The notes beneath the pieces are model-generated. The model was not told the DNA's origin. It saw nothing but the letters and a program-made list of their open reading frames with translations, and ran no database searches. This document shows positions 2,306 to 57,464 of a stretch of DNA of 64,000 nucleotides, piece after piece. Numbering within the stretch: the first letter of the stretch is position 1; each line of letters begins with the position of its first letter. A program made the translations under genes and the position numbers. The stretch is from Chloroflexota bacterium (GTDB taxonomy: Bacteria; Chloroflexota; Dehalococcoidia; Lucifugimonadales; Lucifugimonadaceae): positions 1-64,000 of the forward strand of contig PBHC01000016.1 of the NCBI GenBank assembly GCA_002719295.1, in the 5' to 3' direction.

Positions 2306-2321
2306 GTTAAAATTGAAATAT

Positions 2322-2678
2322 GGGGACGAGTGGGTTCGACAAGAAATGGATTTCTAAGTTGCAGGTCGTGTTGTCATACCACGTATGAAATGGCAAAAAT
2401 ACGATTGGCGAACGAAATAACGCTCTCGCTACAGCTTAATATAAGCTAGTGACGTTCTTTAGTATCTTTGCTTAGGGTGATATTAAGGAGCGACGAATTA
2501 CCTAGGCTGAGCAACATCATTGCTAGAGTGGTGTTGCAAACACTTTTCTAGATAAGCATACATAGATGGTTTGTCGATTGCGCCTTTGTTGACGAAAATA
2601 TTAATATCGACTAAGCCTGTAGAAGCTTAGAAAGAAAATTTCTTGGACGGGGGGTTCAACTCCTCCCCGTCTCCACCA
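2322..2678 (+). ncRNA. ssrA: tmRNA; predicted tag (A)GERNNALATA*
   Basis: 5' GGGGACG pairs with 3' CGTCTCC-ACCA including the G3-U wobble; T-loop TTCAACT; tag ORF 2407-2439; adjacent to smpB. Confidence 0.95.
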
Positions 2679-6806: not shown

Positions 6807-6841
6807 CTAATAAAAAATCCTTTTATTTATTTGAAATTTCA

Positions 6842-8579: not shown

Positions 8580-9369
8580 TTGTCTCTCCAAGTATAAAAT
8601 CCTTGACTTCCCTAGATACAAAAATAGGGTTCTCTAATATTATATTATGTCCAGATTCTGGAACCATTATAGTTTTAGATTTTCTTATTGAATTAGAAAG
8701 CTTTTTTGATATTCTTTTGTATTTTTCATCATTTGATCCATACAAAATTAAAGTTTTAGTATCAATTTTTTGAAGTTCAGGTAAAAGATTATTTTGCTTT
8801 CCTTGACCTTGATTTTTTAGGTTCATAGCTAGTCCTAAAGGATTATTTTCTAATCTTATTTTTTTGTGTTTTGTTCTTTTTTCTAATGGCAATTTATTTT
8901 CTGATTCCCACAAAGGGATAGATTCCCAATAATTTACAAAATCTTCAATGCCTTTTTCTTCAAGTAAACTTATTAATTTTTGATCAGAATTGATTCTTTT
9001 TTTCTTTTCTTCTGGATTCTCTAATCCATAAGACGCGCTGCATAAAATAAGATTATTGATTTTTTTTTGAAAAGTTGATGCTATGTGCATAGCTATTCTT
9101 CCACCAAGTGAATATCCAAGAATATTTACCTTTCTAAATTTTAATTTATTAATAATTGAAATTATTGAATTAATTGAATTTTCGAAAGAATAATCTGATT
9201 CGTTGTACGTCATAGATTTTCCATGCCCAACCAAATCTATTCTTACAACCTTAAAATATTGTTGCATATATTTAGAAACAATATCAAAAGATTTATTACT
9301 GCCTGTAAATCCATGAATTAATAATAAAGGCAAACCATTTCCTTCTACCTTGTAAAATAAATTGCTCAT
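8569..9369 (-). CDS. menH: SHCHC synthase (alpha/beta hydrolase)
   Basis: [25 protein letters not shown]; between menD and menB. Confidence 0.9.
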
Positions 9370-25046: not shown

Positions 25047-26120
25047 TTACGATAAAGACTCTTCGTTTGTCTTGGCTTTTATCACTTCAAATATTTTCTT
25101 CCTCCATCCATTTATTTTGATTTTATTTGATCCGAAATATTTTTCTAAATCTTTTTTAGTAGCCACGAGTTGTTGCGAAATATTAAGTTCAATTGATAAA
25201 TCTTGTAATATTTTTTGATATTTTTTTACATTTGTTCTTTTTGATTTAACTTTTTCAAATACATTTTTTGAGAAATCAAATTTATCAAAAATATCCAAGT
25301 AATCATTAGAATTAAAAAATCTATTTGAAGATAAGTTTTCTTTTTTTAATTCGTTTATATTTGTATATTTTTTTGACGACAACCTAATGATATTTTTATC
25401 ACTTAGATACCAAGTCTTAGGTATATTTCTTTTTCTACATATTTCTTCTCTATATTTAGATAATAGAATGAAAAGTTTTTGATTTATTCCTGAGAAGTCA
25501 CTTAACTTTATTTTTTCCCATGCATTTTTTGGCTCTTTTTTGAACTTGTTATCTTTTACTATTTTTTCTAATTCTTCCTTGTACCAATTTTCTTTTTTAT
25601 CAAGAATCAGCAATTGGGATATTTTGTAGTATATTTTTTCTAAATATAAAACATCGTTAGCAGCATAATTAATTTGAAGTTTACTAAGTGGCCTTCTTAT
25701 CCAATTTGAAGTTTGTAATTCTTTATCTAAATCAATATTTAAATATTTCTTAACTAGGTTTTTATAACTTATATGATGTTCTAGATCAATAAATGCATTT
25801 GCTAATTGAGTATCGAAGAAATTTTTTAGTTCTAAAGAAAAAAAATCATTAATGATTTCTATATCTTGTTCTGCATCATGAAATATTTTTATATATTTAT
25901 TATTTTTGAAAATATTACTTAATTCTTTCAAGTTCTTATTGTTTCCAAGACAATCAAATATGAATACTTTATTATTTACAGCTAATTGAATTAAACTAAG
26001 GACAGGATAGTAGGTTTTTTCTCTAATAAATTCTGTATCAACAGATATAACTTTACTTTTATTTATCTCTTCTAAAAATAATTTATTATCAGATTCATCT
26101 GTAATTAAGTTAATGTTCAT
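25047..26120 (-). CDS. rnd: Ribonuclease D
   Basis: VDTEF.RE.TYYP.L.LIQ, H...QD, DTQ.A, SNW..RPL...Q..YAA.DV, C-terminal GWR. Confidence 0.9.
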   Translation of the reverse strand: MNINLITDESDNKLFLEEINKSKVISVDTEFIREKTYYPVLSLIQLAVNNKVFIFDCLGNNKNLKELSNIFKNNKYIKIFHDAEQDIEIINDFFSLELKNFFDTQLANAFIDLEHHISYKNLVKKYLNIDLDKELQTSNWIRRPLSKLQINYAANDVLYLEKIYYKISQLLILDKKENWYKEELEKIVKDNKFKKEPKNAWEKIKLSDFSGINQKLFILLSKYREEICRKRNIPKTWYLSDKNIIRLSSKKYTNINELKKENLSSNRFFNSNDYLDIFDKFDFSKNVFEKVKSKRTNVKKYQKILQDLSIELNISQQLVATKKDLEKYFGSNKIKINGWRKKIFEVIKAKTNEESLS

Positions 26121-26908
26121 AATTTTTCAATAATAGTGGTAAGGTCCTTTAGTGAATTAATAATATGATCTGGTTTAATTGATTGTTCTTGTAAATTATT
26201 TTTTCTATTAATAAGAACGTTTTTAATATTCAGTTTTTGTGCACCCAAGATATCTCCATCTAATGTGTCTCCAACCATAATTATTTCATTTAAGTCTAAG
26301 GATAGTTTTTCACAAATGTATTTATATGGCTTGCTGAAAGGCTTTCCTTGTAAGCACTCTGAAGAAGTTACAATTTCTGAGTTTGGGGTTGAAAAAAAAT
26401 CCATTAAACCGGAAATACTTATTTTTTTCCTTTGGTGCAATTGCATTCCATTTGTCAGGATTCCTAGTTTATATCTTTTTAATTTCGTAAGTGTAGGGAT
26501 TACGTCATCAAATGATTTTATTCCCTCCCACATGAAAAATTTATATTTATCAATAATACTTTTGATATTTATTTTCTTACTTAAAATACCTAAATTTTTT
26601 ATAACATTTATCCACATTTCATTTTGAGCTTCTAAATGAATATTTTTAAGATGTTGAGCTATTTCACCAAATCCTCCACAATCAGCCCATAATATATCTC
26701 TTCCACCAAATTTAGCATCTAAGTAATCAGCGAAATATTTTTTTGAACCAACAGAATCTATTGTCTCTATCATTATTTTCAAGACTTCAGTATTTTTCAT
26801 ATTAAAATCGGGAAAAAATGTTTTTATTGTTCTTAAATAATTAAAATCATATAGATCATCATGAACGGTTAATGTATCGTCTAAATCAAAAATTATACCT
26901 TTGATCAT
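26117..26908 (-). CDS. HAD-superfamily hydrolase
   Basis: FDLDDTL motif I, TNG, KP, VGD....DI.GA. Confidence 0.88.
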   Translation of the reverse strand: MIKGIIFDLDDTLTVHDDLYDFNYLRTIKTFFPDFNMKNTEVLKIMIETIDSVGSKKYFADYLDAKFGGRDILWADCGGFGEIAQHLKNIHLEAQNEMWINVIKNLGILSKKINIKSIIDKYKFFMWEGIKSFDDVIPTLTKLKRYKLGILTNGMQLHQRKKISISGLMDFFSTPNSEIVTSSECLQGKPFSKPYKYICEKLSLDLNEIIMVGDTLDGDILGAQKLNIKNVLINRKNNLQEQSIKPDHIINSLKDLTTIIEKL

Positions 26909-27966
26909 AAATTTGAAATTATTGATCTTGTTACTTCTGATGTACTAGAGTTCCCTCCTAAGTCAGGAGATATTGATTCGCCTAATTCTAAAACATTTTT
27001 TACAGAATTTTCTATAATTTCTGCACTTTCATTTTCTCCAAGATGTTTCATCATTATTCCAGCTGTTAGTATTTGAGCCATAGGGTTTGCTATACCTTTA
27101 CCTGCAATATCTGGTGCTGAACCATGAGTTGGTTCAAACATTGATGGACTCGTTTTTGTTGGATCAATATTTCCACTAGAAGCTAATCCCATAGATCCTG
27201 TAATAATTGCTCCTATATCTGTTAGAATATCTCCAAAAAGATTACTTGCTACTACTACGTCAAAGTTTTGTGGCTTTCTTATGAAGTCCATACATGCAGC
27301 ATCAATTAATAATGAATCTGTTGTAACCTGAGGGTAATCTTTTTTTACTTCCTCAAATGTTCTATCCCATAGAACCATTGAATATCCTTGAGCGTTGGAT
27401 TTAGTTATTGAAGTTAGATGCTTCTTTTTGTTTCTTTCTATTGCTAACTCAAATGCAAATCTTATAACTCTTTCACAACCTTTTCTTGTAAACACTGCAC
27501 TTTGAACAGCAACTTCATCAGGGAATCCTTGATATTGAAATCCTCCAACATTAGCATATTCTCCTTCAGTGTTTTCTCTTACCACGACAAGATCTATATC
27601 ATATGGCTTTAAGTCTTTTAGAGGAGTATTAACTCCTGGATATAATACAGATGGTCTTACACATGCAAATTGATCGAATGCTCTTCGGATTGGAAGAAGT
27701 AATCCATTTAGAGTTATATGATCTTGAATATCCGGGTGTCCTACGGCTCCTAAGAAAATGGCATCAAAAGATTCTAATTGTTCAATCCCATCTTTAGGCA
27801 TCATAATCCCATTTTTAAAATAATATTCTGAGCTCCAGTCAAATTCATGAAAATCAAGCTTGTAATCTTTGTTTTTTTCTAAAGCCTTTAGAACTTCAAT
27901 AGAACTATTAACTACTTCTACACCAATTCCATCTCCTGGAATTACGGCTATTTTATAAGTTTTCAT
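26905..27966 (-). CDS. Tartrate/D-malate dehydrogenase (decarboxylating) family
   Basis: IPGDGIG.EV, GAVG.P...DH, IRR.FDQ...RP, RENTEGEY, TKSN, NLFGDILTD, EP.HGSAPDI; start re-called to ATG at 27966 after AGGAG. Confidence 0.88.
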   Translation of the reverse strand: MKTYKIAVIPGDGIGVEVVNSSIEVLKALEKNKDYKLDFHEFDWSSEYYFKNGIMMPKDGIEQLESFDAIFLGAVGHPDIQDHITLNGLLLPIRRAFDQFACVRPSVLYPGVNTPLKDLKPYDIDLVVVRENTEGEYANVGGFQYQGFPDEVAVQSAVFTRKGCERVIRFAFELAIERNKKKHLTSITKSNAQGYSMVLWDRTFEEVKKDYPQVTTDSLLIDAACMDFIRKPQNFDVVVASNLFGDILTDIGAIITGSMGLASSGNIDPTKTSPSMFEPTHGSAPDIAGKGIANPMAQILTAGIMMKHLGENESAEIIENSVKNVLELGESISPDLGGNSSTSEVTRSIISNL

Positions 27967-27976
27967 ATATTTTCTC

Positions 27977-28849
27977 CTAATTTTGCTTCTCAATTATTTG
28001 AATTATTCCAGCCATATCATCCATTTCTTTTCCATCTTTTTTTAGTTCATCATATAATTTTTTTGAAGTTTTTGTTAATGGTAAATTTACTGATAAATCT
28101 TTTCCTAATTGATCTATTATAGAAATATCTTTATGTAAGTTTCTTGCTGGTACAGGAGAACCTTTAAATTTCCTGTCCCTTATTATAGGAGCACATCTTT
28201 CTAACATTCTTGAATAACCAAAGCTAACCTGTAATATTTCCATTGCAGAGTCTATGTCAACATTTGTGGCATTTGTTAATGCAAGGGCTTCTGCTGCTGC
28301 AGTTGTGTGTACAGCAGTTAGTAGTTGATTAATTAATTTCATAGATGTTCCTGATCCGCTATCACCCATATGTTTAATTGTCGTCCCCATCATTTTGAAA
28401 TAATTTAAGGCAGCATTATATGCTTCTTTATTTCCTCCAACCATAATAGATAATGTTCCATCATTTGCACCAACTGGTCCTCCTGATATAGGAGCGTCAA
28501 GAAAATCAGAACCTTTTTCTTTTGAATATTCAAAACATTTTTTAGATGTTGAGAGGTCTACGGTAGAGTGGTCTATAATGATTTTTTTATCATTAGTATT
28601 AGACAAGATTCCTTCTTTTCCTGTTATTATTTCAATTGATGTTTCAGTATCAGGTAGGCATGTCAAAATTATGTCGCATTTCTCTGCAAGTTCTTGAATA
28701 GAAGAAGCTCCTTTTGCCCCAACTTTCTCCATAGCAATTATTTTTTCTCTACTTCTTGTGTAAACAGTAAGATCAGCTCCTTTTTCAAGTAGATTATTTG
28801 CCATACCTTGACCCATGTTTCCTAATCCTATAAATCCTATCTTATTCAT
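27977..28849 (-). CDS. Beta-hydroxyacid dehydrogenase (3-hydroxyisobutyrate DH / tartronate-semialdehyde reductase family)
   Basis: IGFIGLGNMG, DAPISGG, G.L.IMVGG, KL.NQ, KD; start re-called to MNKIG. Confidence 0.88.
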   Translation of the reverse strand: MNKIGFIGLGNMGQGMANNLLEKGADLTVYTRSREKIIAMEKVGAKGASSIQELAEKCDIILTCLPDTETSIEIITGKEGILSNTNDKKIIIDHSTVDLSTSKKCFEYSKEKGSDFLDAPISGGPVGANDGTLSIMVGGNKEAYNAALNYFKMMGTTIKHMGDSGSGTSMKLINQLLTAVHTTAAAEALALTNATNVDIDSAMEILQVSFGYSRMLERCAPIIRDRKFKGSPVPARNLHKDISIIDQLGKDLSVNLPLTKTSKKLYDELKKDGKEMDDMAGIIQIIEKQN

Positions 28850-28857
28850 ATCTAACC

Positions 28858-29799
28858 TCAATCTAAATTTGTGTTTATATTTTTAATTAATTTTTTTATA
28901 CTTTCCTTAATTATCTCGTGTGAATTTGCAGCGTTATGTGGGGTAAGTATAACATTGTGTAAGCTTTTCAATTGATTATTTTTTGATAGTGGCTCATTTT
29001 CAAATACATCTAATGCAGCTCCTGCAATTTTTCCACTAACTAATGAATCATATAAGGCCTTTTCATTTATCAACTTTCCTCTAGCTGTATTAATTATGAA
29101 AGCATTTGACTTCATCCTTGAAAATTCATTTGAACTTATTAAATATTCAGTTTCTTCTACAATTCTAGTATGAAGAGTTATTACGTCAGAGTTTTCTAAA
29201 AGATAATCTAATTCAGAAACTTTTCCAAATTCTTGAAAACTTAATGTCCTTACGTTATCCATTCGGATTACAGGAGTAACAATGATATTCATGCCTAAAT
29301 TGGAGCCAATTTTGGCAACTTTTTCTCCAATTGCTCCTGCACCAACTATACCTAAAGTTTTCCCTTCAAAAAGATCAACTTCAATTGATGGCCATTCGTT
29401 ATTTCTTACTCTTCTATCTAACTCAGGAATTTTCTTTAATAATGAAATCATTAAACCGATTGAGTGTTCAGCAACAGAATTTGTTAATATATCAGGAATG
29501 TTTGAAACAATAATATTGTTTCTTTTTGCAGAATCTACATCTATATGATCTAAAGCTATTCCAAAAACAGCTATATGTTTTAAGCTTGGTAAGCTCTCAA
29601 TTATATTATTATTTATTTTTGTAGTTGCTTTAGTTATGACAGCTGTGTGAGCATCATTTAATCTTGATAGAATTTCTCTAGAATCAGATGGTAATGATCT
29701 GAAAACTTCTATTTCATTTTCATTTTTCAAATCATTAAATAATGAAGGATCATATGAAACTACCTGAGGTTCGTCATCAACTATTACTATTTTGGACAT
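28858..29799 (-). CDS. D-isomer-specific 2-hydroxyacid dehydrogenase
   Basis: SVAEH, G.GAIG, INTARG, LDVFENEP, TPHNA. Confidence 0.9.
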   Translation of the reverse strand: MSKIVIVDDEPQVVSYDPSLFNDLKNENEIEVFRSLPSDSREILSRLNDAHTAVITKATTKINNNIIESLPSLKHIAVFGIALDHIDVDSAKRNNIIVSNIPDILTNSVAEHSIGLMISLLKKIPELDRRVRNNEWPSIEVDLFEGKTLGIVGAGAIGEKVAKIGSNLGMNIIVTPVIRMDNVRTLSFQEFGKVSELDYLLENSDVITLHTRIVEETEYLISSNEFSRMKSNAFIINTARGKLINEKALYDSLVSGKIAGAALDVFENEPLSKNNQLKSLHNVILTPHNAANSHEIIKESIKKLIKNINTNLD

Positions 29800-29863
29800 T
29801 ATAAAAAAACTCCAGTGAAAATTCTATTATAATGTTCTTATCATCTATAAAAAACATTATTTC

Positions 29864-30196
29864 ATGTCAGCATATAAAATTTTATACTGGAAAGAAATTC
29901 CTACACAACTAAAATTTAAAGATAATGAAGGAAATGAAGGCTCATATCCACTTAGTCTGTTTTTTCAAACAGCAATAGATGCTATTGCTATGCATGATGG
30001 ATCAATTGAAAGTGGAGCATATCTAGATGCTTGGGATTGGGGCCCAGAGTTAGAAACAAACCAGGACCCTGAGGAAATTATTAAAGAATTTGATGATAAT
30101 ATTCCTAAATCATTTATTAATAAAATCAAATCTTTACACGACGAAGGAAAAAGATCAGGATTACCTGGTTCGATAGACTCATGGTTCAAAACTTAA
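29864..30196 (+). CDS. 'Virulence factor' (Virulence_fact / CvfC-like) family small protein
   Basis: YW.EIP.Q...L...FQ.AID..AM..G......YL..W signature. Confidence 0.75.
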   Translation: MSAYKILYWKEIPTQLKFKDNEGNEGSYPLSLFFQTAIDAIAMHDGSIESGAYLDAWDWGPELETNQDPEEIIKEFDDNIPKSFINKIKSLHDEGKRSGLPGSIDSWFKT

Positions 30197-31104
30197 AAAG
30201 TAGCTCAAAAAAAATTCTTGATGACATAAAAAAAGGTAAAATATTTTTACTTGATGGCGCCACCGGTACTTTTTTACAGAATAATGGTCTTGAACCAGGA
30301 GGATGCCCTGAACTTATGAATATTGAATCCCCAGAAGTTATTTCTAAAATGGCTCATAACTACTTTTCAAACGGAAGTGATATTGTTCTTACTAATACAT
30401 TCGGAGGTAATTACTATAGGCTAAAACATTATGGATTGGAACAAAAAGTATTTGAAATAAATAAATTAGCCACTGAGATTGCCAAAAGTGCAGCATCAGA
30501 ATATCAAGAAAAATATGTATTTGGATCTATTGGTCCTACTGGAGAATTTTTAGAACCATTAGGGAATGTTTCTGAAAAAGAAATGTATGATTGCCTTTTT
30601 AATCAAATGAAAGGATTGTATGAAGGTGGGGTTGATGGATTTGTAATAGAAACTCAAATAGCAACAGAAGAAACATTGCTTGCATTAAAAGTTGCAAAGG
30701 AAAACTTTAATATTTTAAATATAGTCTCATTTGTATATGATAAAGGGCCAAAAGGTTATTTTACTATGTTTGGACTTACTCCATCTCAAAGTGTTGAAAT
30801 GTTTTTTAATTCAGGAGCAGATATTGTAGGGACAAACTGTGGTAACGGTTCAGAAAAAATGGTTGAAATTTCTACAGAAATTCGAGCTGAAACAGATAAT
30901 CCTATTTTAGTACAAGCTAATGCAGGTATTCCAATAATTAAGAAAAACGATATAATTTACCCAGAATCTCCTGAAGATATGGTGAAAGAATATAAAAAAT
31001 TAATAGATTTGAACATAAATATATTAGGTGGATGTTGTGGTACAAACGAGAAGCATATTAATGAGTTTTCAAAAATAATAAGGAGTCACAATGAAAGTAT
31101 CTGA
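30181..31104 (+). CDS. Homocysteine S-methyltransferase family protein (stand-alone MetH Hcy-binding-domain type)
   Basis: LDGA.GT, TNTFG, GSIGPTG, ET, G.NC, NAG.P, GGCCGT Zn-binding cysteines. Confidence 0.9.
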   Translation: MVQNLKSSSKKILDDIKKGKIFLLDGATGTFLQNNGLEPGGCPELMNIESPEVISKMAHNYFSNGSDIVLTNTFGGNYYRLKHYGLEQKVFEINKLATEIAKSAASEYQEKYVFGSIGPTGEFLEPLGNVSEKEMYDCLFNQMKGLYEGGVDGFVIETQIATEETLLALKVAKENFNILNIVSFVYDKGPKGYFTMFGLTPSQSVEMFFNSGADIVGTNCGNGSEKMVEISTEIRAETDNPILVQANAGIPIIKKNDIIYPESPEDMVKEYKKLIDLNINILGGCCGTNEKHINEFSKIIRSHNESI

Positions 31105-31735
31105 AGTTAAAATTAAATTCGGAAAATGCCTTGAACTTGTTTCAATGGATCCAAATTTTCATAATATAAGTGTAGGTTTATTTATAAAAAATGATATCTT
31201 AACTGTTTGGTCTTACAGTAAAAAAGAAGGAATTGAAAAAAGGCTAAACATTATAAGAGATAAAATGGTTGAATTTGGTGGGTTAAATAATTTAGAAGAA
31301 GACTATAAGATGTCAATTCCAAAAGGAGCTCTTATTGAAAGGCCACTGAAATTTTTGTTTAGTCAATGTGTGGAAATGTCTCCTGATAAAGAACCTGAAA
31401 AAGGCATAATTACAGCAAAAGATAATAAAACAAAATTGACTTTTTTAATCAAAGGATCTCAGGAATCAGACAAGTATCTCTATACTGTGACTTCTGAAGG
31501 AGATCATGAAAAACCAGGACTCAGAATTAGGGCAGTTGTTGGAGGTTTTATGAAATATGGTGAATGTATAAGAAATGATGTTGATTCATTTTACTTCCCT
31601 GATAAAAAAGATCATGAAGAATACGTTAGAGTTTTGCTTCCCTTCGCAAGAAATGTAAGCGCAGTTGAACAAATGTTAGAAGCATCTGATCAAGCTGGAC
31701 AAATGACAACACAAAGTTTAGGGTTTTCGCAATAA
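31091..31735 (+). CDS. Hypothetical protein in the corrinoid methyltransferase operon
   Basis: 214-aa ORF overlapping the upstream gene by 14 nt; no recognised motif. Confidence 0.8.
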   Translation: MKVSEVKIKFGKCLELVSMDPNFHNISVGLFIKNDILTVWSYSKKEGIEKRLNIIRDKMVEFGGLNNLEEDYKMSIPKGALIERPLKFLFSQCVEMSPDKEPEKGIITAKDNKTKLTFLIKGSQESDKYLYTVTSEGDHEKPGLRIRAVVGGFMKYGECIRNDVDSFYFPDKKDHEEYVRVLLPFARNVSAVEQMLEASDQAGQMTTQSLGFSQ

Positions 31736-31750
31736 TAGGGAGAAAATATT

Positions 31751-32779
31751 ATGAAACAAATGACAAAAAAGGAAAGAGTTCTAGCAGCTCTAAATAGATC
31801 AGAAGTAGATAGGCCTCCAGTAGCTAACCCTACATCTGTTGCTACTGTAGAAATGATGGATTTAGTTGATGCTCCTTTCCCTGATGCTTGTAGGTCGGCA
31901 GAATTAAACGCCAGACTTGCAGCTACAGAAATTACAGAATTTGATTTTGATGCTATCGCGCCATACTTTTCAATAATTCAAGAATCTAGTGCTATTGGAT
32001 GTGAAATGCAATGGGAGCAGAAAGATAATTGGCCTACTGTTAGAATGACTAATCCAATATGGAAAACATCAAGTGATATTAAAGTTCCATCAGATTTTTT
32101 AGATCATCCAGATGTTAAGGTGATACTAGATTCAATAAGAATTTTAAAAAAAGAATTTGGAAACGATGTTCCTATAATTGGAAAAACTATGGGACCTTGG
32201 ACTCTTGCGTATCATGTTTTTGGTGTTGAAACATTCCTTTTGGGATCAGTAGATAGTCCAGATGAAACTATAAAGTCTTTAGAAAAACTTCAAGAGTTTA
32301 CATATTTATTTGGAGAGGCACAAGTTGATGCAGGAGCAGATGTATTAACTATTCCAGATCATGCAACAGGAGATTTAGTTTCTGGTCAATATTATCAAAA
32401 ATTCCTTCAAGAAATTCATTCAGAAATGGCTCAAAAATTCACAGTCCCTTTAATCCTTCATATTTGTGGGAGAACAGTAGACAGAATGCCATATATTGCA
32501 GACACAGGTATGCATGCATTTCATTTTGATTCAAAAAATTCTCCTCAAGAAGCCATGGATGCTGTAGATAATAAAATTGCCTTAGTTGGAAATATTAATA
32601 ATCCAGAAACGCTATATTCTAAAGACGCTGATGATGTAAAAAAAGAGGTATTTGAATGCCTAAATGCTGGAGTTCAGCTAATAGCACCTGAATGTGCGAT
32701 CCCATTAAAAACTAAAGCTGAGAATTTGGTAGCAATAAACGAAGGTATTTCGGATTGGCTAGCAGAAACTAATTCATAG
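31751..32779 (+). CDS. MtaA/CmuA-family methylcobamide:thiol methyltransferase (URO-D fold)
   Basis: ERVLAAL....VDRPPV, VE.MD.V.A.FP.A, GP.TLA, AGADV....D, LHICG and APEC Zn ligands; GGGAG RBS. Confidence 0.88.
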   Translation: MKQMTKKERVLAALNRSEVDRPPVANPTSVATVEMMDLVDAPFPDACRSAELNARLAATEITEFDFDAIAPYFSIIQESSAIGCEMQWEQKDNWPTVRMTNPIWKTSSDIKVPSDFLDHPDVKVILDSIRILKKEFGNDVPIIGKTMGPWTLAYHVFGVETFLLGSVDSPDETIKSLEKLQEFTYLFGEAQVDAGADVLTIPDHATGDLVSGQYYQKFLQEIHSEMAQKFTVPLILHICGRTVDRMPYIADTGMHAFHFDSKNSPQEAMDAVDNKIALVGNINNPETLYSKDADDVKKEVFECLNAGVQLIAPECAIPLKTKAENLVAINEGISDWLAETNS

Positions 32780-32832
32780 ATTTGATAAAATAAAAATATA
32801 CTTTACATATTCGAAAAATAATAGGAAAATTT

Positions 32833-33576
32833 ATGTTTGATCATGAAGGACTTTCAAAAGAATTTGAGTGGGTAACCAAAGAAAGTGAAAAAAACCATAT
32901 AGGTGGAGCTATTTCTAAAACTTCGCTTGAAATGCAAGAAATTTCTTATGCTCTTATTACTGGAGATAATAACTTAGTAGATGAACTTACAAAAAAAGCA
33001 CTAGATAATGGATCTACTGCAAATGAAATACTTGATGATGGATTATTAAATGGAATGGCAATTGTAGGGGTTAAATTTAGAGACAATGTAATTTTTGTAC
33101 CAGAAGTTCTAATATCAGCCAGAGCTATGAAAGCTGGAATGGCACACATTGAGCCAATATTATCTGAATCAGGAATTGAACCTCAAGGTATTGTATTAAT
33201 GGGTACAGTCAAAGGAGATTTACATGATATCGGAAAGAATCTGTGCATAATGATGCTACGAGGCGCAGGATTTACTGTTCATGATTTGGGTGTTGATACC
33301 TCTCCTGAAGATTTTGTTGATGGCTTTGAAGAACATGAACCCCAAGTAATAGGAATGTCTGCTCTTTTAACCACAACCATGCCTAATATGGGAAGAACTA
33401 TACAGTATTTTGAAGATATTGGTTTGAGAGAAGACGTTAGAATGATGGTAGGCGGAGCCCCTGTCACTCAAGAATTTGCAGATGAAATGGGAGCAGACGG
33501 ATATGGAGAGAGTGCTGTTGACGCTGTAGATAAAGCAAAGGAGCTTGTTGAGCTTCTAAAAGATCTAAAGAGCTAA
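32833..33576 (+). CDS. Stand-alone corrinoid (cobalamin-binding) protein, MttC/MtbC-like
   Basis: Cap domain GM..VG..F....FVPEVL..ARAM, GTVKGDLHDIGKN (DxHxxG), SALLTTTM, VGGAP. Confidence 0.95.
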   Translation: MFDHEGLSKEFEWVTKESEKNHIGGAISKTSLEMQEISYALITGDNNLVDELTKKALDNGSTANEILDDGLLNGMAIVGVKFRDNVIFVPEVLISARAMKAGMAHIEPILSESGIEPQGIVLMGTVKGDLHDIGKNLCIMMLRGAGFTVHDLGVDTSPEDFVDGFEEHEPQVIGMSALLTTTMPNMGRTIQYFEDIGLREDVRMMVGGAPVTQEFADEMGADGYGESAVDAVDKAKELVELLKDLKS

Positions 33577-33583
33577 ATTAAAA

Positions 33584-33862
33584 ATGACTTATAAAAAGTC
33601 TAATTCAAATAATAAAAAAAGATTACAGAAGAGTTTAGATAACCTATATAATATTTTTCAAGATATATCTTCTCATGCTGATGAAATCAGTAAAACTAGA
33701 TGTCCTTACAAAAATGCTAAAAATTTATGTACGGCAAATTTTTCTTGCAGGAATCAGCATTTTACTGAAAAAAATATAGAACTCCCCTATTGTGTTGGTT
33801 CTCATAAATTAGATTATAGATTTGCATGGGAAGTAGATAAACCTATTAAAAAAAATGACTAG
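33584..33862 (+). CDS. Small four-cysteine hypothetical protein
   Basis: RCPYKNAKNLCTANFSCRNQ...YC; overlaps the RACE start by 8 nt. Confidence 0.75.
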   Translation: MTYKKSNSNNKKRLQKSLDNLYNIFQDISSHADEISKTRCPYKNAKNLCTANFSCRNQHFTEKNIELPYCVGSHKLDYRFAWEVDKPIKKND

Positions 33863-35486
33863 CAATAAATTTATTAATGACAAAGAATCTATAGAATTAA
33901 CAAAAAATAAATCTCTGTTCGAGTATGCAGATAAAGTTAAAATGAGAATTCCAACATCTTGTGGCCGGGTTGGTGATTGCCATGAGTGTATAGTTGAGGT
34001 GTCTGAAGGATATGAATTATTATCAAAACCAACAGATCATGAATTTTTTTTAAAGGAACCATTTAGATTAGCATGTCAAGCTATCACTACTTCAACAGAA
34101 ACTAATTTAATCTTTAGTCCTAGAAAAAGAGATCGAAAAATTTTGACAAATTTTTCTAATGAATCTTCATACGAAGTAGATCATAACTATAGTTATCAAG
34201 ATAATGCATTAATTTATAAGTCTGACAAAGATGAAAAAGTTTTATCGAAATCTAAAAATTTCTATGGATTAGCTATTGATGTTGGAACTACCACGGTAGC
34301 AATTAATTTAGTTGATATTAATAATGGAAAAGTCATTATTACTTCCTCTTTTGAAAACCCTCAGATATTTGGAGGCTCAGATGTAATGAATAGAATCTCT
34401 TATGATTCAAGTAATTATAAAGGAGAGTTGTCAAAAGCTATCATATCTTCAGTAAATTTTGAAATAGGAGAGTTTGTTAAAAAGTTGAAAATCAGAAGAA
34501 ATGAAATTGTTGAAGTTACTATTGTTGGAAACTCAACAATGAGAGATTTGTTTTTTAGTTTAGATGTAGAACCAATTGGAGTTAAACCTTATAAATCAAT
34601 AATTGAAACTAATTATTTAGATTCTAAAATACCAACTACTGAATTATTTACTACTGCAAAGGATTTAAACTTAAGAATTAATTCACAAGCTATGATTTAT
34701 AGCCCTCCTCTTATTGCTTCCCACATTGGATCTGATGTTTCTGCAGGTTTGATAGCTACTGATTTTTTTCTAAATAATAAGATGAAAATGTTAATAGATA
34801 TTGGAACAAATACAGAAGTTGTTTTAGGAACTCCAGATAGAATGCTTGCTGCTTCATGTCCAGCTGGCCCCGCATTTGAGGGAGGGGAAATAACATATGG
34901 AATGCCAGGTTATGATGGAGCAATAGAGAAGGTAAATTTTGAAAAAAATAATTTTATATACCAAACTATAGGTAATTCAAAACCATTGGGTCTTTGTGGT
35001 TCTGGATTAATCGATTTTCTTTCAGTGCTAGTAGATAATAATATTATGAATCCGCTAGGTAAATTTGAACTTGAAAAAGAGTCTGTTTTTATTGATGATA
35101 ATGAATCTATAAATTTATCTAGAAGAGATGTATCTAGCCTAGCTCAAGCAAAAGCAGCCAATGTCTGTGGACAAGCTTTAGTTATAAAGGATTTTGGAAC
35201 TAATATAGATGCTATTGATAACATTTATCTTGCTGGAGGTTTTGCAAATTATATAGATATTGAAAATGCAAGAAATATAGGGTTTATACTTGATTTCCCT
35301 TTAGAAAAAATAAAAAAAATAGGAAATACTGCTTTAGAAGGAGCTACAAAGTTATTATTATCAAATAAACTTAGGAAAAATCTTGTTGAATATGTGAAAA
35401 AAATAGATCACTTAGAACTTGAAACAAAAGCAGAGTTTTTTGATTATTTTGTTGAAGGTTGTCAATTTAAGAAAATTTCAATATAG
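33855..35486 (+). CDS. ATP-dependent reductive activator of corrinoid enzymes (RACE/RACo-like; 2Fe-2S plus ASKHA domains)
   Basis: SCGRVGDCHEC...RLACQ ferredoxin motif; DVGTTT, NPQ..G.DVM.RI, DIGTN.E, AGPAFEG, GLCGSG, LAGGF, GN.AL.GA. Confidence 0.92.
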   Translation: MTSNKFINDKESIELTKNKSLFEYADKVKMRIPTSCGRVGDCHECIVEVSEGYELLSKPTDHEFFLKEPFRLACQAITTSTETNLIFSPRKRDRKILTNFSNESSYEVDHNYSYQDNALIYKSDKDEKVLSKSKNFYGLAIDVGTTTVAINLVDINNGKVIITSSFENPQIFGGSDVMNRISYDSSNYKGELSKAIISSVNFEIGEFVKKLKIRRNEIVEVTIVGNSTMRDLFFSLDVEPIGVKPYKSIIETNYLDSKIPTTELFTTAKDLNLRINSQAMIYSPPLIASHIGSDVSAGLIATDFFLNNKMKMLIDIGTNTEVVLGTPDRMLAASCPAGPAFEGGEITYGMPGYDGAIEKVNFEKNNFIYQTIGNSKPLGLCGSGLIDFLSVLVDNNIMNPLGKFELEKESVFIDDNESINLSRRDVSSLAQAKAANVCGQALVIKDFGTNIDAIDNIYLAGGFANYIDIENARNIGFILDFPLEKIKKIGNTALEGATKLLLSNKLRKNLVEYVKKIDHLELETKAEFFDYFVEGCQFKKISI

Positions 35487-35494
35487 AGGGGAAT

Positions 35495-36484
35495 ATGAAA
35501 TATAAAGCAGTAATTACAGATTATGTGTGGCCTAATCTTGATATCGAAACAAAAATTCTTAATGATAATAATATAGAGGTTGTTGATTGTAAAAATAAAA
35601 ACGATCAAGAACTCATGAATGAATTGAAAGATGCTGATGCTATTCTTTTTTGCTTTAGAGAAGTACCTGCGGAATTTCTTGAAGTATCTACAAAATGTAA
35701 GGTTGCATCAAGATATGGAATTGGTGTAGATAATATAGATATAAAAAAATGTACAGAATTAGGCATTGTTGTAACGAATATTCCTGATTATTGTTTAGAA
35801 GAAGTATCAGATCATGCAATAGCTATGATCCTTAGTTTAAATAGAAGAATAAATGATCATTCAAATATGGTAAAAAAAGGTGGATGGAATGATCTAAATT
35901 TAAACATACCTGTTCAAAGACTTAGTGAATCAACTTTAGGGATTGTTGGGTTTGGAAGAATAGGCAGAACTATTGCTTCAAGGGTATCTGCTTTAGGTAT
36001 AAAGTCTGTGGCATTCGATCCTTTATTACAACCAGGAAAAATAATTGATAACGTAGAAATCGTATCTTTTGAAAATTTATTGAAAGATTCTGATTTTATT
36101 ACAGTTCATGTCCCGTTGAATGAAAAAACACATCATCTTTTCTCTGAAAATGAATTTAATCAAATGAAAAATAACGCAATTCTAGTTAACTGTGCAAGAG
36201 GAGGATTGATTGATGAAAATGCAGCCTCAAAAGCACTTTCAAAAGGTCAAATAGGAGGAGTTGGATTAGATGTTATTGAAGATACTTCTAATTCTCCTTC
36301 AAGCCCTCTATTTAATAATGAAAATGTGATAATTACTCCACATACAGCTTTTTTCTCTAAAGCCTCAGGTGAAGAACTCCAAAAAAGGACAGCAGAAGAA
36401 ATTGTTAGAGTTATAAATAATGACAAACCTGAAAATTTTATTAACCCTGAAGTTTTAGGAAACACTAGGTCTAATATAAGTTAA
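35495..36484 (+). CDS. D-2-hydroxyacid dehydrogenase (CtBP-like subfamily)
   Basis: RYGIGVDNID, N.PDYC.EEVSDHA, GFGRIG, NCARG, TPH.AF.S. Confidence 0.9.
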   Translation: MKYKAVITDYVWPNLDIETKILNDNNIEVVDCKNKNDQELMNELKDADAILFCFREVPAEFLEVSTKCKVASRYGIGVDNIDIKKCTELGIVVTNIPDYCLEEVSDHAIAMILSLNRRINDHSNMVKKGGWNDLNLNIPVQRLSESTLGIVGFGRIGRTIASRVSALGIKSVAFDPLLQPGKIIDNVEIVSFENLLKDSDFITVHVPLNEKTHHLFSENEFNQMKNNAILVNCARGGLIDENAASKALSKGQIGGVGLDVIEDTSNSPSSPLFNNENVIITPHTAFFSKASGEELQKRTAEEIVRVINNDKPENFINPEVLGNTRSNIS

Positions 36485-37641
36485 TTTTCTAGAGTCATTT
36501 GCCCTTGGTTATCCTCAGATTTTTTGTTTAAAATTTGTTCGTCTATTACTTCTTCAATTATTGATACATCAAGAGCTTTATCAGGGTTTTTATCAAGTTG
36601 TGTTTCAAGATCCTTAACTGTACTAAATTTTTTATCTAATGCTTTTCTTCTTCTTCCTTCCAAATATTCAAAATGAGTCGTTGCTGTTTTTAATGCTCTG
36701 CTAACAACTGACTGTTCTTCAACATAATTATCCCATTCTTTTTTTAGTTCATCTAAAATAGTCATGATTTGATTTTGGTTTTCTCCTATAGTTACAACTT
36801 TCATAAATTCTTTTATAACTCCCACAACTAAGAGTAAATTTCCAGGAGAAGTTATAGTAACTTTTTTACTCTGTGCATATTGAATTAGATCCATTCTTTT
36901 CTCGTATATAAATGAGAGAATATGATCACTAGGAACAAAAACAATTACGTTATCAAGAGTATTTTCTTTTGTATTAATATACTTATTTCCAACTTCATCA
37001 ATTATTCTTTTTAGAGAATCAAAAAATTTTTTCTCCCTATTCTGTATATCAACTATTTCATTATCTTCATCCATAAGAGGTTGGAAATATTCCCATACAA
37101 ACTTTGAATCCATATGTATTACTTTGCCATCAGGTAGATTTATTGTGAAATCAGGTCTGGTACCATTTTCTAGTACTTGTTGGGTTTCATACTGGACACC
37201 CTTAATAAATCCTGCGCTTCTAAAAATATCTTCAGCCATAAGTTCTCCAAGTTGTCCTCTGGTTTGACTTCCAGATAGGACATTTGTAAGTTTGCTAAAT
37301 TCATCTTTAGCTATATTTATCGCTTCTTCTGTACTTTTATTTTGTTTTCTTAATAGATCATTTGTAGTAACAAGCTTAACTGTTTCCTGCATAGTTTTAT
37401 CGTATTGTCTTGTCATCAAATCTTTTACTGTTTGTAAATCTTTATTAAACTTTTCATCTTTTTCAGAAAGCAATTCTTTTACCTTACTTTGAACTCCCTC
37501 TTTTGTTTCATCTGCAAATTCTTTAAATTTTAACCCTGAAAAATATTTTGAAAATCTAATAAAGAATAGTATTGAGATTCCTGCTAGTGAAAAAATTAGG
37601 ATTATTAACAAAAAAATTATAGTTAAATTGAATGCATTCAT
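36481..37641 (-). CDS. rmuC: DNA recombination protein RmuC family
   Basis: N-terminal TM and coiled coil, RG..GE, RPD....LP......DSK, F.PS, SP..L. Confidence 0.85.
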   Translation of the reverse strand: MNAFNLTIIFLLIILIFSLAGISILFFIRFSKYFSGLKFKEFADETKEGVQSKVKELLSEKDEKFNKDLQTVKDLMTRQYDKTMQETVKLVTTNDLLRKQNKSTEEAINIAKDEFSKLTNVLSGSQTRGQLGELMAEDIFRSAGFIKGVQYETQQVLENGTRPDFTINLPDGKVIHMDSKFVWEYFQPLMDEDNEIVDIQNREKKFFDSLKRIIDEVGNKYINTKENTLDNVIVFVPSDHILSFIYEKRMDLIQYAQSKKVTITSPGNLLLVVGVIKEFMKVVTIGENQNQIMTILDELKKEWDNYVEEQSVVSRALKTATTHFEYLEGRRRKALDKKFSTVKDLETQLDKNPDKALDVSIIEEVIDEQILNKKSEDNQGQMTLEN

Positions 37642-37756
37642 AAAGTTATTCTAAATCATCGTATAAGATAATTTTAGAGTTTTTATATAAAATAAGTCAA
37701 ATTACATTTTTGCTTGTTATAACGATTAAGTGGAATATATAAGTTAGAATATAACT

Positions 37757-38911
37757 ATGCTAGAAAAAACTCCTGATTATAGAGAATATTTTAATATTGA
37801 CGATAATATTTCTTACTTAAATAGTGCTTATATGGGTTTATTGCCTAAAAGTTCCGTTCAAAAAGGTAATTATGGTTTTGAATTAAAATCTAAATCATGG
37901 GAAATACAATGGAATGATTTTTACGACAAACCTGAAAATACGAGAAAATTATTTTCTAAATTAATTAATGCAGATAATGATTCAGTCTTTTTCGTTCCTT
38001 CTGCAAGTTATGGTTTTTCAGTATTTGCTAATAACTTTAAATTAGACCATCGTAAAACAATCTTGCTTCTGGAGGAAGAATTCCCTTCAAATGTATGGAT
38101 ATGGAAAGAGCTCGCAAAAAATCAAAATGGTAATGTAAAGTTTGTTCGAAGACCTGATGATGATGATTGGACATCTGCTATCTTGAATGACTTAAATGCT
38201 GATACTGCTTTAGTATCTGTTCCAAATTGTCACTGGACGGATGGAGGATTAATTAATTTAGAAATACTTTCTAAAGAATTAAGAGAAAAAAATATTTCAC
38301 TAGCAATTGATGGAACTCAATCAGTTGGGGTAATGCCTATAGATTTACAGAAAATTAAACCTGATTTTATGGTTGTATCTGGATATAAGTGGTGTTTAGG
38401 TCCTTATAGTTTGGGCTTAGCTTACATAGATAGTAAATACCATTCAGGAGAACCTATTGAATATAATTGGTTATCAAAATTACCAATGCCTGCAGATAGC
38501 AAGTTTCCTGACATGACTGCTTATGATGAATTTGAGTTTGAAAATGCTAGAAAATTTGATTTTGGACAGAGAGGTAATTTTCATTTAATTCCAGCTTTAG
38601 AATCATCATTGCAATTGATAACAAATATAGGACCTGAAAATATCTATAAATATGTTGATAACCTAAATGAGGAAATCATAAAATCTACTTCAGAAATGGG
38701 ATTTTCTAATATTGTTAGAAATCTTAGAGCGAGGCACTATCTTGGGTTAAGATTTGAAAATGAAATCCCAAATAATTTTGTTGAAAATTTAGCTAAAGAA
38801 AATGTATTCATAAGTGCTAGGGGGAAAAAAGCAATTAGAGTTACACCACATATATGGAATAATCTAAATGATATAGATAAATTTTTAAATGCCTTGAAGA
38901 GAGTTTTATAA
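37757..38911 (+). CDS. Class V PLP-dependent enzyme (aminotransferase / C-S lyase-like)
   Basis: YLNSA, EFPSN, DGTQS.G, SGYKW (PLP Lys), IRV.PH.N. Confidence 0.88.
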   Translation: MLEKTPDYREYFNIDDNISYLNSAYMGLLPKSSVQKGNYGFELKSKSWEIQWNDFYDKPENTRKLFSKLINADNDSVFFVPSASYGFSVFANNFKLDHRKTILLLEEEFPSNVWIWKELAKNQNGNVKFVRRPDDDDWTSAILNDLNADTALVSVPNCHWTDGGLINLEILSKELREKNISLAIDGTQSVGVMPIDLQKIKPDFMVVSGYKWCLGPYSLGLAYIDSKYHSGEPIEYNWLSKLPMPADSKFPDMTAYDEFEFENARKFDFGQRGNFHLIPALESSLQLITNIGPENIYKYVDNLNEEIIKSTSEMGFSNIVRNLRARHYLGLRFENEIPNNFVENLAKENVFISARGKKAIRVTPHIWNNLNDIDKFLNALKRVL

Positions 38912-38912
38912 C

Positions 38913-39842
38913 ATGACAATTATTATTACAGAAGATCAAGTAAAAGAAATATTAAGTGTAGACACTACGGTAGATTTATTAGAAGAAGCTATGAAGTCTA
39001 TTTCTTCAGGAAAAGGCTTCAATAGCCCTCGTAAAAGGCTTCCTACTAGTTATAACGGAGGAAACTTACATTTTATGGCAGCATCATGGCCAGAAAAAGG
39101 AATAGCTGGGCATAAGAGCTATGTTGTGACAAAAGGGAAAGCATCTTTTGTAGTAATTCTTTACTCTACTGAAGGAGAAGGAATGTTAGCAGTTATTGAA
39201 GGTAATTTATTAGGACAAATAAGAACAGGTGCTGCATCAGGTCTTGCTTCAAAATATTTAGCCAATCCTAATTCTAAAAAATTAGCCGTTATTGGATCAG
39301 GTTTTCAAGCCGAAACTCAACTTGAAGCAATAAATTCACAATTCAATTTAGAGAAAGTAAAAGTTTATTCAAGAACAAAAGAAAAACGAAATTCATTCGC
39401 AGAAAAAATGAGTAATAAATTAAGTCTGAATATTCAAGCCTTTGAATCTTCTGAAGAAGCAACTGATAATTGTGATATTGTTTCGCTAATTACTAATTCA
39501 AGCACTCCTGTTATCTCAGAAGATCAAATCACTAAAGGAGTTCACATTAATGCTGCTGGTGGTAATAGTTGGTTGAGATCAGAATTACCTTCTAGCTCAA
39601 TTGAAAAATTTGATTTTATTTCATGTGATGATTTAAATCAGGCTAAAACTGAATGTAAAGAGCTAATGGAAGCGACAGAAAAAGGTATTACTTCATGGAA
39701 TAATATCCATGAATTATCTGATGTAATAGATAATAAAATTATTGGGCGAAAAAATCATCAAGACATAACTTTGTATGAATCTTTAGGTATAGCTATTCAG
39801 GACATTGCAGCTGCTAAATATGTATATGACCAACTTATATAA
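38913..39842 (+). CDS. Ornithine cyclodeaminase / mu-crystallin family protein
   Basis: RTGAASG.A, IGSG.QA.TQ, HINA.G, SLG.AIQD.AAA. Confidence 0.9.
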   Translation: MTIIITEDQVKEILSVDTTVDLLEEAMKSISSGKGFNSPRKRLPTSYNGGNLHFMAASWPEKGIAGHKSYVVTKGKASFVVILYSTEGEGMLAVIEGNLLGQIRTGAASGLASKYLANPNSKKLAVIGSGFQAETQLEAINSQFNLEKVKVYSRTKEKRNSFAEKMSNKLSLNIQAFESSEEATDNCDIVSLITNSSTPVISEDQITKGVHINAAGGNSWLRSELPSSSIEKFDFISCDDLNQAKTECKELMEATEKGITSWNNIHELSDVIDNKIIGRKNHQDITLYESLGIAIQDIAAAKYVYDQLI

Positions 39843-52758: not shown

Positions 52759-52851
52759 TGGCGGGAGAGAAAGGGAATCGAACCCTCCTTGATAAATAAT
52801 ACCAATCATAGTTTTGAAGACTAGAAAATTCACCAGAATATACTCACTCCC
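52759..52851 (-). tRNA. selC: tRNA-Sec (anticodon UCA)
   Basis: 93 nt: 8-bp acceptor GGGAGTGA/TCTCTCCC plus GCCA; 6-bp D-stem with 4-nt TGGT loop; anticodon loop CTTCAAA; long variable arm; T-arm GAGGG-TTCGATT-CCCTT. Confidence 0.9.
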
Positions 52852-55754: not shown

Positions 55755-55757
55755 TTT

Positions 55758-57461: not shown

Positions 57462-57464
57462 ATA

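Follow-up and report, generated by a model that had tools for sequence, protein, structure and literature searches.

From where does a corrinoid-dependent methyl-transfer cluster draw its methyl groups when no methyl-donor subunit is encoded within it? The question is raised by eight genes at 29864-36484 of the window, as we call the whole 64,000-nucleotide stretch of a Chloroflexota contig (PBHC01000016.1, assembly GCA_002719295.1) that was analysed here. The cluster combines a stand-alone homocysteine S-methyltransferase (MtgE-like), a zinc methyltransferase of the MtaA/CmuA family (MtaA-like), an orphan protein of 214 residues (U214), a corrinoid methyl carrier (Corr) and an activase (RamA) with three further proteins, Vir, C4 and HacDH (Table 1). 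An initial annotation had interpreted it as a folate-independent relay, in which the MtaA-like enzyme would take a methyl group from a methylated sulfur compound or a methyl halide and the corrinoid protein would hand it to homocysteine. Our analysis leans towards a corrinoid methyl-transfer hub made of a methionine synthase (MetH) split into separate proteins, to which the MtaA-like enzyme and U214 add a third methyltransferase, likely on the donor side and directed at methylated sulfur or selenium. The core of this hub is ordinary, and the MtaA-like enzyme with U214 is its unexplained part.

Core modules and the folate methyl donor

The window lies on contig C16 of an assembly that we designate G000 (1.27 Mb, 20 contigs, 81% complete), and absences from this assembly are provisional throughout; the other G-numbers likewise denote sampled genomes, 301 of them from the class and 101 from the window's order. 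The G+C content of the window is about 30%, and the labels on the closest homologues read SAR202, Dehalococcoidia or Chloroflexota, in agreement with the SAR202 origin assumed initially; judging by labels, the cultured SAR202 strain 'Ca. Lucifugimonas marina' also has close homologues. From the list of open reading frames (ORFs) and from Pfam and NCBIfam profile searches we recovered eight co-oriented genes with exactly the boundaries first given, overlapping by 16, 14 and 8 nt in three places and otherwise separated by 7-53 nt. All the motifs named in the initial annotation (GTNC/GGCC, HICG...C, DLHDIG and four cysteines) are present, and its call of two zinc/thiol-type transferases agrees with the zinc-cysteine motifs of the MtgE-like protein and the His-Cys-Cys set of the MtaA-like one.

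The same searches found no MttB, MtaB or pterin-binding domain among the proteins encoded in the cluster, so that the reported lack of a methyl-donor subunit holds for the cluster; for the genome, however, it does not. Searching G000 with PF00809 gave two genes, FolP, which adjoins FolK, and a 332-aa MtgD-like protein on contig C12, outside the window. The latter scored 70.2 bits with PF00809, 185.5 bits with NF005719 (cut-off 259, not reached) and 104 bits with the metH pterin region, and its gene lies directly downstream of that for a divergent 262-aa methylenetetrahydrofolate reductase (MTHFR; MetF2-like). The genome-wide search for partner genes thus left standing the absence of MttB (PF06253) and of MetE or core-MetE from G000, but not that of a pterin-binding protein. 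There is also no second PF02574 gene in G000, and MttB had no match in 8 related genomes either. Given the MtgD-like gene, the split MetH of G000 would be able to take its methyl group from folate, and the proposal of folate-independent methionine synthesis in this organism, which had been made conditional on there being no pterin gene elsewhere, could not be upheld. Apart from the cluster, G000 yielded no candidate for a methionine synthase.

The core parts fit such an enzyme. The MtgE-like protein carries its zinc-cysteine motifs at residues 217 (GTNC) and 283 (GGCC), scores 216 bits with PRK07534 and 160 bits with metH of NCBIfam, both under the equivalog cut-offs, and is the sole PF02574 match in a profile search of G000. 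Corr has the DLHDIG base-off/His-on motif at residue 129; its nearest NCBIfam model is MtgC_2 (212.6 bits versus a cut-off of 370), the MtgC models together giving 188-213 bits against cut-offs of 310-370. The only other B12-binding protein detected in G000 is a B12 plus helix-turn-helix (HTH) regulator. Being the sole methyltransferase-type corrinoid protein found, Corr is also the only partner found for the MtgD-like enzyme. The regulator itself (296 aa; contig C4 of G000, L005:1204-2094, minus strand) combines a B12 cap and a B12-binding domain with an HTH_3 domain at its C-terminus, an unusual domain order, and its sequence suggests a B12-dependent regulator that is possibly light-sensing and CarH-like.

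To place the folate module in a wider context, we turned to related genomes. One MtgD-type gene and FolP were found in each of five relatives from the same family (94-97% complete, two being closed or almost closed genomes), in none of which PF01717 had a match. Across the order, 40 of 101 genomes have an MtgD-type orthologue (E <= 1e-83), 38 of them together with U214, and in 32 of these 38 it stands on the same contig as U214 at a distance of 1.7-10.3 kb; it is distant or on another contig only in G000, G029, G064, G345, G385 and G356. In G088 the whole set is contiguous, in the order MetF2-MtgD-Vir-MtgE-U214-MtaA-Corr-C4-RamA-HacDH. Such close linkage in 32 of 38 genomes implies that the cluster in its usual form includes the folate module, and the arrangement in the window is a derived one, from which MetF2-MtgD has moved away. 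Thus, we are confident that the homocysteine module, Corr and the activase constitute, with MtgD and MetF2, a split cobalamin-dependent methionine synthase.

Such a design has precedents. A three-part split MetH was demonstrated genetically in Phaeobacter inhibens (Price et al. 2018, PMC5764234), and the pairing of mtgD with metF2 and a dual-function MtgBCDE, in which MtgB forms the glycine-betaine branch, were described in Ruegeria pomeroyi (Mausz et al. 2025, PMC12478193). As far as the accessible parts of these reports go, the likeness extends to the separation of homocysteine (PF02574), corrinoid (PF02607 plus PF02310) and pterin (PF00809) modules on different proteins, to reactivation by a ferredoxin and DUF4445/RACo protein instead of PF02965, to a metF paralogue adjoining the pterin gene and, in Ruegeria, to a further methyltransferase able to serve the shared corrinoid protein. 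Going by the same parts, the present system departs from these two in that the further methyltransferase is an MtaA/CmuA-family zinc enzyme with U214, neither an MttB-family MtgB nor DUF1638 was found, the PF13769 and four-cysteine proteins are conserved extras and the host belongs to the phylum Chloroflexota; moreover, the MtgC and BHMT/MtgE NCBIfam scores are under their cut-offs here. With the E. coli-type MetH the system has in common the core chemistry and the homocysteine, pterin, cap and B12 modules, but the modules are separate and spread over two contigs, a reactivation domain dependent on S-adenosylmethionine (SAM) is lacking and a methyltransferase is added. The main text of Mausz et al. 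(PMC12478193) contains no mention of MtaA, MtbA or URO-D, though its supplementary datasets and Fig. 4 could show such genes. Our literature search found no paper on the cluster in SAR202 or Chloroflexota. The split B12 methionine synthase is therefore a design already known from marine bacteria, while the third, MtaA-family enzyme with a novel partner is new.

The activase scored 322.7 bits with AcsV of NCBIfam (cut-off 800), and no SAM-type reactivation domain (PF02965) was found in G000. The C4 gene overlaps that of the activase by 8 nt, the four cysteines of its product (residues 40, 49, 55 and 70; CX8CX5CX14C) are invariant in 7/7 orthologues, and a C4 protein accompanies Corr-RamA in Acidobacteriota too; possibly it is a metal or Fe-S accessory of the activase. 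Vir stands upstream of MtgE in all seven relatives examined and overlaps the MtgE gene by 16 nt, an arrangement of translational coupling. Its alignment has 20 invariant columns (n=27 sequences), and its AlphaFold2 (AF2) model, with a pLDDT of 87.7, found no solved look-alike (Foldseek E >= 0.23; VIA Z <= 3.0). For neither Vir nor C4 was a relative with an established function recognised. HacDH scored 253 bits as PGDH (cut-off 454) and 217 bits as glyoxylate reductase (cut-off 455); it follows RamA directly in 4/7 relatives, and its tie to methyl transfer is unproven.

Table 1. Genes of the corrinoid methyl-transfer cluster, with positions in the window and profile matches.
Feature	Position	Strand	Profile match
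Vir, 110 aa	29864..30196	+	PF13769 Virulence_fact, Pfam 34.5 bits vs cut-off 25
MtgE-like stand-alone homocysteine S-methyltransferase = homocysteine domain of MetH	30181..31104	+	PF02574 S-methyl_trans 200.6 bits
U214, 214-aa orphan, predicted partner subunit of the MtaA-like enzyme	31091..31735	+	no family match
MtaA/CmuA-family zinc methyltransferase, URO-D fold	31751..32779	+	PF01208 220.6 bits; TIGR01463 242.3 bits vs cut-off 235.4
Corr, MtgC-like corrinoid (cobalamin-binding) methyl carrier	32833..33576	+	B12-binding_2 (PF02607) 73 bits; B12-binding (PF02310) 98 bits
C4, 92-aa four-cysteine protein	33584..33862	+	no Pfam or NCBIfam match
RamA/RACo-type ATP-dependent reductive corrinoid activase, N-terminal 2Fe-2S ferredoxin domain	33855..35486	+	Fer2 28.7, Raco_middle 137.7, RACo_C_ter 228.1 bits
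HacDH, D-2-hydroxyacid dehydrogenase, SerA/glyoxylate-reductase-like, last gene of the co-oriented block	35495..36484	+	2-Hacid_dh_C 186.9 bits

The gene set is well conserved, as a survey of its neighbourhoods, proposed with the initial annotation, established. The order Vir-MtgE-U214-MtaA-Corr-C4-RamA is kept in six of seven relatives from other genera, and the stretch examined in the seventh, G274, reads Vir-MtgE-U214-MtaA-MtaA'-MtgD. Among 57 public loci bearing U214 with enough flank, the same strand also holds an MtaA-like gene in 53, RamA in 49, MtgE in 47, Corr in 44 and HacDH in 41, all undercounts, as a crude ORF caller was used. The arrangement is not due to chance. Of the 301 class genomes, 8 gave an MtaA-like orthologue with an identity of at least 62%, and all 8 belong to the window's order. 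U214 is present in 50 of the 101 order genomes and a stand-alone MtgE orthologue (about 300 aa, E <= 1e-74) in 53, adjoining U214 wherever both are among the matches listed, so that the split MetH is tied to the MtaA-like enzyme in 50 of the 53 genomes with stand-alone MtgE. MetH-sized ORFs (1162-1245 aa) occur in 15 U214-negative genomes of the order and ORFs of 620-780 aa, the size of a fused homocysteine methyltransferase/MTHFR, in about 19; a MetH-sized ORF and the U214 cluster are mostly mutually exclusive, both being found in 3 to 4 U214-positive genomes.

Metatranscriptome contigs at least 99% identical to the cluster were found in 4 libraries from 3 studies, covering parts of MtgE, U214, MtaA, Corr, C4, RamA and HacDH, with single contigs spanning the U214/MtaA and Corr/C4 junctions. 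RamA and most of HacDH have little or no such cover, which is not evidence of silence. We take these contigs as a hint that the cluster is expressed.

The MtaA-like enzyme and U214

What kind of methyltransferase is the third enzyme? Its presumed zinc ligands, His237 (HICG at 237), Cys239 and Cys315, are invariant in 33/33 sequences, the mean column identity of the same 33 is 78%, and with identities between genera of 68-90%, compared with 48-72% for MtgE and 46-68% for the activase, it is the best-conserved protein of the cluster. It scored 266.4 bits with PRK06252 (cut-off 244) and did not reach the MtaA/MtbA equivalogs NF040654 (238 versus 400 bits) and NF041608 (199 versus 600). Its best PDB sequence match, 4AY7 (M. 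mazei MtaA), runs end to end (E 6e-51), with HICG and the second cysteine aligned. According to the available text of a preprint by Kountz and Balskus (10.1101/2023.07.31.551370), His-Cys-Cys marks the S/Se methyltransferases of the UroD superfamily, the O-demethylases having carboxylates. Both cysteines being invariant, the carboxylate that replaces one or both zinc cysteines in the aromatic O-demethylase MT I proteins OdmB/VdmB is not seen here, and, as judged from its residues, the zinc site is of the S/Se type. The gene is the sole URO-D-family match in G000. No HemE was found there, and haem may be made by a HemE-free route or the gene may lie in the missing 19%.

Like MtaA, MtbA and MtsA of Methanosarcina (PDB 4AY7/4AY8), the enzyme combines the URO-D fold with an H-x-C...C zinc site, but its host is a bacterium, no coenzyme M context is evident, its neighbour is a homocysteine methyltransferase, and an obligate-looking partner such as U214 is not known for the methanogen enzymes. 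MtsA also strips methyl groups from dimethyl sulfide (DMS) and methylmercaptopropionate (MMPA). A bacterial parallel is offered by the type 1 mlp clusters, for which the available text of the preprint (10.1101/2023.07.31.551370) proposes methyl-sulfur/methyl-selenium demethylation and methionine salvage. As described there, these too unite an MtaA-like His-Cys-Cys enzyme, a corrinoid protein and a bacterial Ram/RACE activase without a folate methyltransferase in the cluster. They have, however, at least two Mlp paralogues (Mlp2 plus Mlp3) and are confined to obligate anaerobes, G000 having a single URO-D gene, and they lack the PF02574 module and U214 that are added here. Chloroflexota are not mentioned in that text (10.1101/2023.07.31.551370).

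U214 always precedes the MtaA-like gene. None of 35/35 members had a Pfam match even at E <= 10. The AF2 model (pLDDT 89), which shows two alpha/beta halves, had no match in the PDB beyond a Foldseek E of 0.045 and a VIA Z of 7.1 over 88 residues, and no ESM Atlas score exceeded 0.82; an identity with DUF1638 or another known family was accordingly rejected. A U214 profile search gave 248 cluster representatives (E <= 1e-3), and the family has at least 582 loci in species-level genomes, including Acidobacteriota and Tectimicrobiota/Entotheonella; fused longer forms were not found, which is weak evidence. The extreme C-terminal tail is conserved as GQMTTQ(S/T)LGFSQ. A distant subfamily (22-30% identity) ends in RGVLxAPSAQ instead and has two CGxxH motifs, one per half-domain, both of which have been lost from the U214 of the window. 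The tail may set partner or substrate specificity.

When the two proteins were modelled together, the interface score ipSAE was 0.89 (runs 0.88, 0.90 and 0.89), compared with 0.19 for the best of three controls, at least 96% of the contacts being common to the runs and partner pLDDT being at least 88. The mark applied to this score is reached by 116 of 157 solved complexes and by 2 of 215 mismatched pairs, counts that are rough here as our own alignments were used. The modelled interface involves MtaA residues 239-240 and 315-316, that is, zinc ligands and their neighbours, and 204-209, facing U214 residues 200-213 and Cys13, which would put the conserved tail of U214 at the zinc site. As we know of no similar complex, the high score is unlikely to reflect a solved structure that the predictor had already learnt. 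The model indicates that the MtaA-like enzyme and U214 probably form a heterodimer.

Direction of methyl transfer

In the hub that we favour, MetF2 would convert methylene-tetrahydrofolate (methylene-THF) to methyl-THF, MtgD would transfer the methyl group to Corr to give methyl-Co(III), and MtgE would pass it on from there to homocysteine, yielding methionine, with the activase, perhaps assisted by the C4 protein, returning oxidised Co(II) to Co(I) at the expense of ATP. With less confidence, we propose that the MtaA-like/U214 heterodimer, in which the U214 tail would reach the zinc site, acts on the same Corr as a third methyltransferase, in the place that the MttB-family MtgB occupies in roseobacters. 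Most likely the methyl group that it loads onto the cobalt would come from a methylated sulfur (or selenium) compound, and this methyl group could then go to homocysteine or, through reversed MtgD and MetF2, into the folate one-carbon (C1) pool. A free corrinoid protein could be shared in this way and the cobalamin of a fused MetH could not, from which we infer why split MetH travels with the pair.

Two sets of genomes bear on the role of the pair. In Acidobacteriota the module reads U214-MtaA-MtgD-Corr-C4-RamA with no MtgE adjacent, and one acidobacterial genome, G394, encodes a MetH of 1237 aa and lacks a stand-alone PF02574 gene; as far as gene content can tell, the pair would thus be a methyltransferase in its own right, exchanging methyl groups with folate via Corr. 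In the window's order, an MtgD-type gene is absent from 12 of the 50 U214-bearing genomes. Four of the 12 have a MetH-sized ORF (G311, G362, G370 and G322) and six have PF01717 proteins of core-MetE size, leaving G336 (closed, 99% complete) and G380 (97%), of the same genus, with neither. Both carry Vir-MtgE-U214-MtaA-Corr-C4, and in neither was an MtgD-type gene, MtrH or MttB found; PF00809 itself matched only FolP, next to HPPK, in G336, and was not used to search G380. An activase gene was not found in the 19.5-kb stretch of G336, the rest of that genome not having been searched for one. As no other donor module was found in these two genomes, the MtaA-like/U214 pair is the only candidate there for loading cobalt, and it is mainly for this reason that we prefer a donor role to an acceptor role, with the donor direction having about an even chance of being right.

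Other methionine-forming arrangements were seen in the MtgD-less genomes. G336 has a second stand-alone MtgE paralogue (300 aa; L118:7902-10016, plus strand, together with the next gene); the 379-aa protein encoded 72 nt after it is matched by neither Pfam nor NCBIfam, and the two could be another homocysteine-methylating pair with an unrecognised donor module. In G309, G344, G361 and G349 (L113-L116), U214-bearing genomes that have no MtgD-type gene, tandem PF01717 proteins of about 335 aa, core-MetE size, score about 261-279 and 124-137 bits; these pairs may represent methionine synthases of the Mes type, corrinoid-dependent or otherwise independent of folate.

How does the wholly folate-independent relay of the initial annotation, with DMS, methanethiol, MMPA or a halide as methyl donor to the MtaA-like enzyme and no role for folate, compare with this? 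The cluster in the window indeed has no pterin or MttB gene, the zinc site is of the His-Cys-Cys type, and no other donor module was recognised in G336 and G380. But in G000 an MtgD-like gene adjoins an MTHFR-like one and has Corr as the only methyltransferase-type corrinoid protein to work with, and MtgD-type genes accompany U214 in 38 of 50 genomes of the order, in 32 of the 38 within 10.3 kb, which makes the relay improbable as an account of the whole system; a thioether-directed reaction survives as one branch of it, consistent with the zinc site and with G336/G380. The opposite direction is somewhat easier to entertain, if still unlikely: here the MtaA-like/U214 pair would move a methyl group, ultimately from methyl-THF, from methyl-corrinoid to a small thiol, sulfide or selenide, a MetH-like S-methylation for making a metabolite or for detoxification, comparable to that of coenzyme M by MtaA. 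This is the direction in which MtaA and MtbA, the nearest characterised relatives, operate (PRK06252, 266 bits; 4AY7, E 6e-51), the acidobacterial module beside a complete MetH fits methyl transfer from methyl-THF to a thiol as well as the reverse, and MtaA enzymes are described as accepting non-native thiols in the available text of a recent report (Angew. Chem. 2026, PMC13618148). Yet an acceptor role would leave G336 and G380 with MtgE and Corr and no means of loading cobalt, coenzyme M is not evident in the context, and no reason would follow for a split MetH being tied to the MtaA-like enzyme in 50 of the 53 genomes with stand-alone MtgE.

The pair, or U214 alone, might also serve the methionine synthase itself, for example as a gate or shield for the corrinoid or the zinc site, or in place of DUF1638 in reactivation. 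DUF1638 (PF07796) had no match in G000 and was found in 1 of the 101 order genomes, the pair and split MetH are closely coupled, and in the model U214 spans the active-site face, its tail lying at the zinc site. Against this, the zinc ligands are invariant and the mean column identity is 78%, as in a working enzyme, and the pair also stands beside MtgD, Corr and RamA in a genome where MetH is complete and MtgE has no gene of its own; we consider this role as doubtful as the relay. Least probable of all, and by our estimate very much so, is methionine salvage, in which the pair would demethylate an internal thioether derived from 5'-methylthioadenosine (MTA) and return the methyl group to homocysteine. 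This was proposed for the non-selenium mlp clusters of anaerobes in the available text of the preprint (Kountz and Balskus, 10.1101/2023.07.31.551370), no transporter is linked to the cluster, and MtnA (PF01008) is found in 21 of 50 U214-bearing versus 44 of 51 U214-lacking order genomes, related genomes that are not independent. Small U214-lacking genomes retain MtnA, and genome size alone does not explain the skew. However, spermidine synthase had no strong match in 13/13 genomes of the family, with 3 weak ones (E 5.5e-7 to 1.3e-5); without a convincing spermidine synthase little MTA is expected, and the loss of MtnA then needs no replacement.

As to the substrate, co-occurrence with selenium genes was tried as a guide and set aside, since a SelA match is present in 97 of 101 order genomes with or without U214 and cannot discriminate; the selenium idea is neither supported nor excluded. 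The neighbour genes were no better as a clue: the 45 commonest families at 80 loci (dehydrogenases, Iso_dh, HAD, ILVD and a family-5 ABC system on the other strand among them) include none that points to a methyl donor.

Several observations weigh against the hub as we have drawn it. In 80 neighbourhoods no transporter, DMSP, methanethiol or selenium gene recurs beside the cluster. DUF1638, needed by Phaeobacter, is missing in G000, and the activation side thus differs from that of the model system. Methionine auxotrophy, or a folate module that escaped recognition, could also account for G336 and G380. The MtaA-like/U214 complex is a prediction, and in the model U214 sits over the side of the barrel that bears the active site and on which the corrinoid would have to dock, which fits a lid or regulator as well as a catalytic subunit. 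The contigs from RNA libraries, finally, can stem from DNA. Taking these points together with the evidence above, we put forward only tentatively the most specific form of the favoured reading, namely that the pair represents a new heterodimeric thioether (methanethiol, DMS, MMPA) or methylselenide:corrinoid methyltransferase of aerobic ocean bacteria that feeds methionine and the folate C1 pool and that, as sole methyl source in the genus of G336 and G380, would act there as part of a B12-dependent, folate-independent methionine synthase.

Surroundings of the cluster and wider meaning

The cluster is preceded by a 64-nt AT-rich gap (29800-29863) that holds only AT-rich inverted repeats, one of them ATAATGTTCTT / AAAAACATTAT at 29829-29860 (91% complementary); Rfam at gathering thresholds gave no riboswitch in the window or upstream of MetF2-MtgD. 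On the minus strand upstream (25047-29799) lies a divergent block of 2-Hacid_dh, NAD_binding_2 (3-hydroxyisobutyrate-dehydrogenase-like), Iso_dh and HAD hydrolase genes, and downstream (36481-39842) follow RmuC, a class-V aminotransferase and an ornithine-cyclodeaminase-like gene. The closest relatives keep the same flanks on both sides, which look like a hydroxy-acid/serine-type pathway, possibly tied to C1 supply.

Elsewhere in the window, a menaquinone gene block at 4427-12246 fits the description of the host as quinone-using. SmpB is followed by a full-length tmRNA (1856-2678, plus strand, Rfam 151.9 bits), an ordinary pair. A tRNA-Sec gene (52763-52851, minus strand, Rfam 68.4 bits) adjoins thioredoxin and a formate-dehydrogenase-like set (53199-57944, minus strand) of Fer2_4/molybdopterin, Nuo51-like and 2Fe-2S thioredoxin-like proteins; with the SelA match in G000 (C9:49442-50518, E 1.5e-122), the tRNA implies that this tiny genome reads selenocysteine.

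SAR202 are among the most abundant bacterial groups of the ocean. As the only recognisable methionine route in this lineage, the cluster would tie growth to vitamin B12. U214, the PF13769 protein and the four-cysteine protein, three conserved proteins without an assigned function, are now given a concrete context. To our knowledge, no enzyme has yet been assigned to the aerobic demethylation of MMPA to 3-mercaptopropionate. If the MtaA-like/U214 pair indeed takes methyl groups from methanethiol, DMS or MMPA, the marine organic-sulfur cycle would gain a further route, and the disassembly of MetH would appear as a general way to plug methyl donors into methionine synthesis, glycine betaine in roseobacters and a sulfur-linked donor here.

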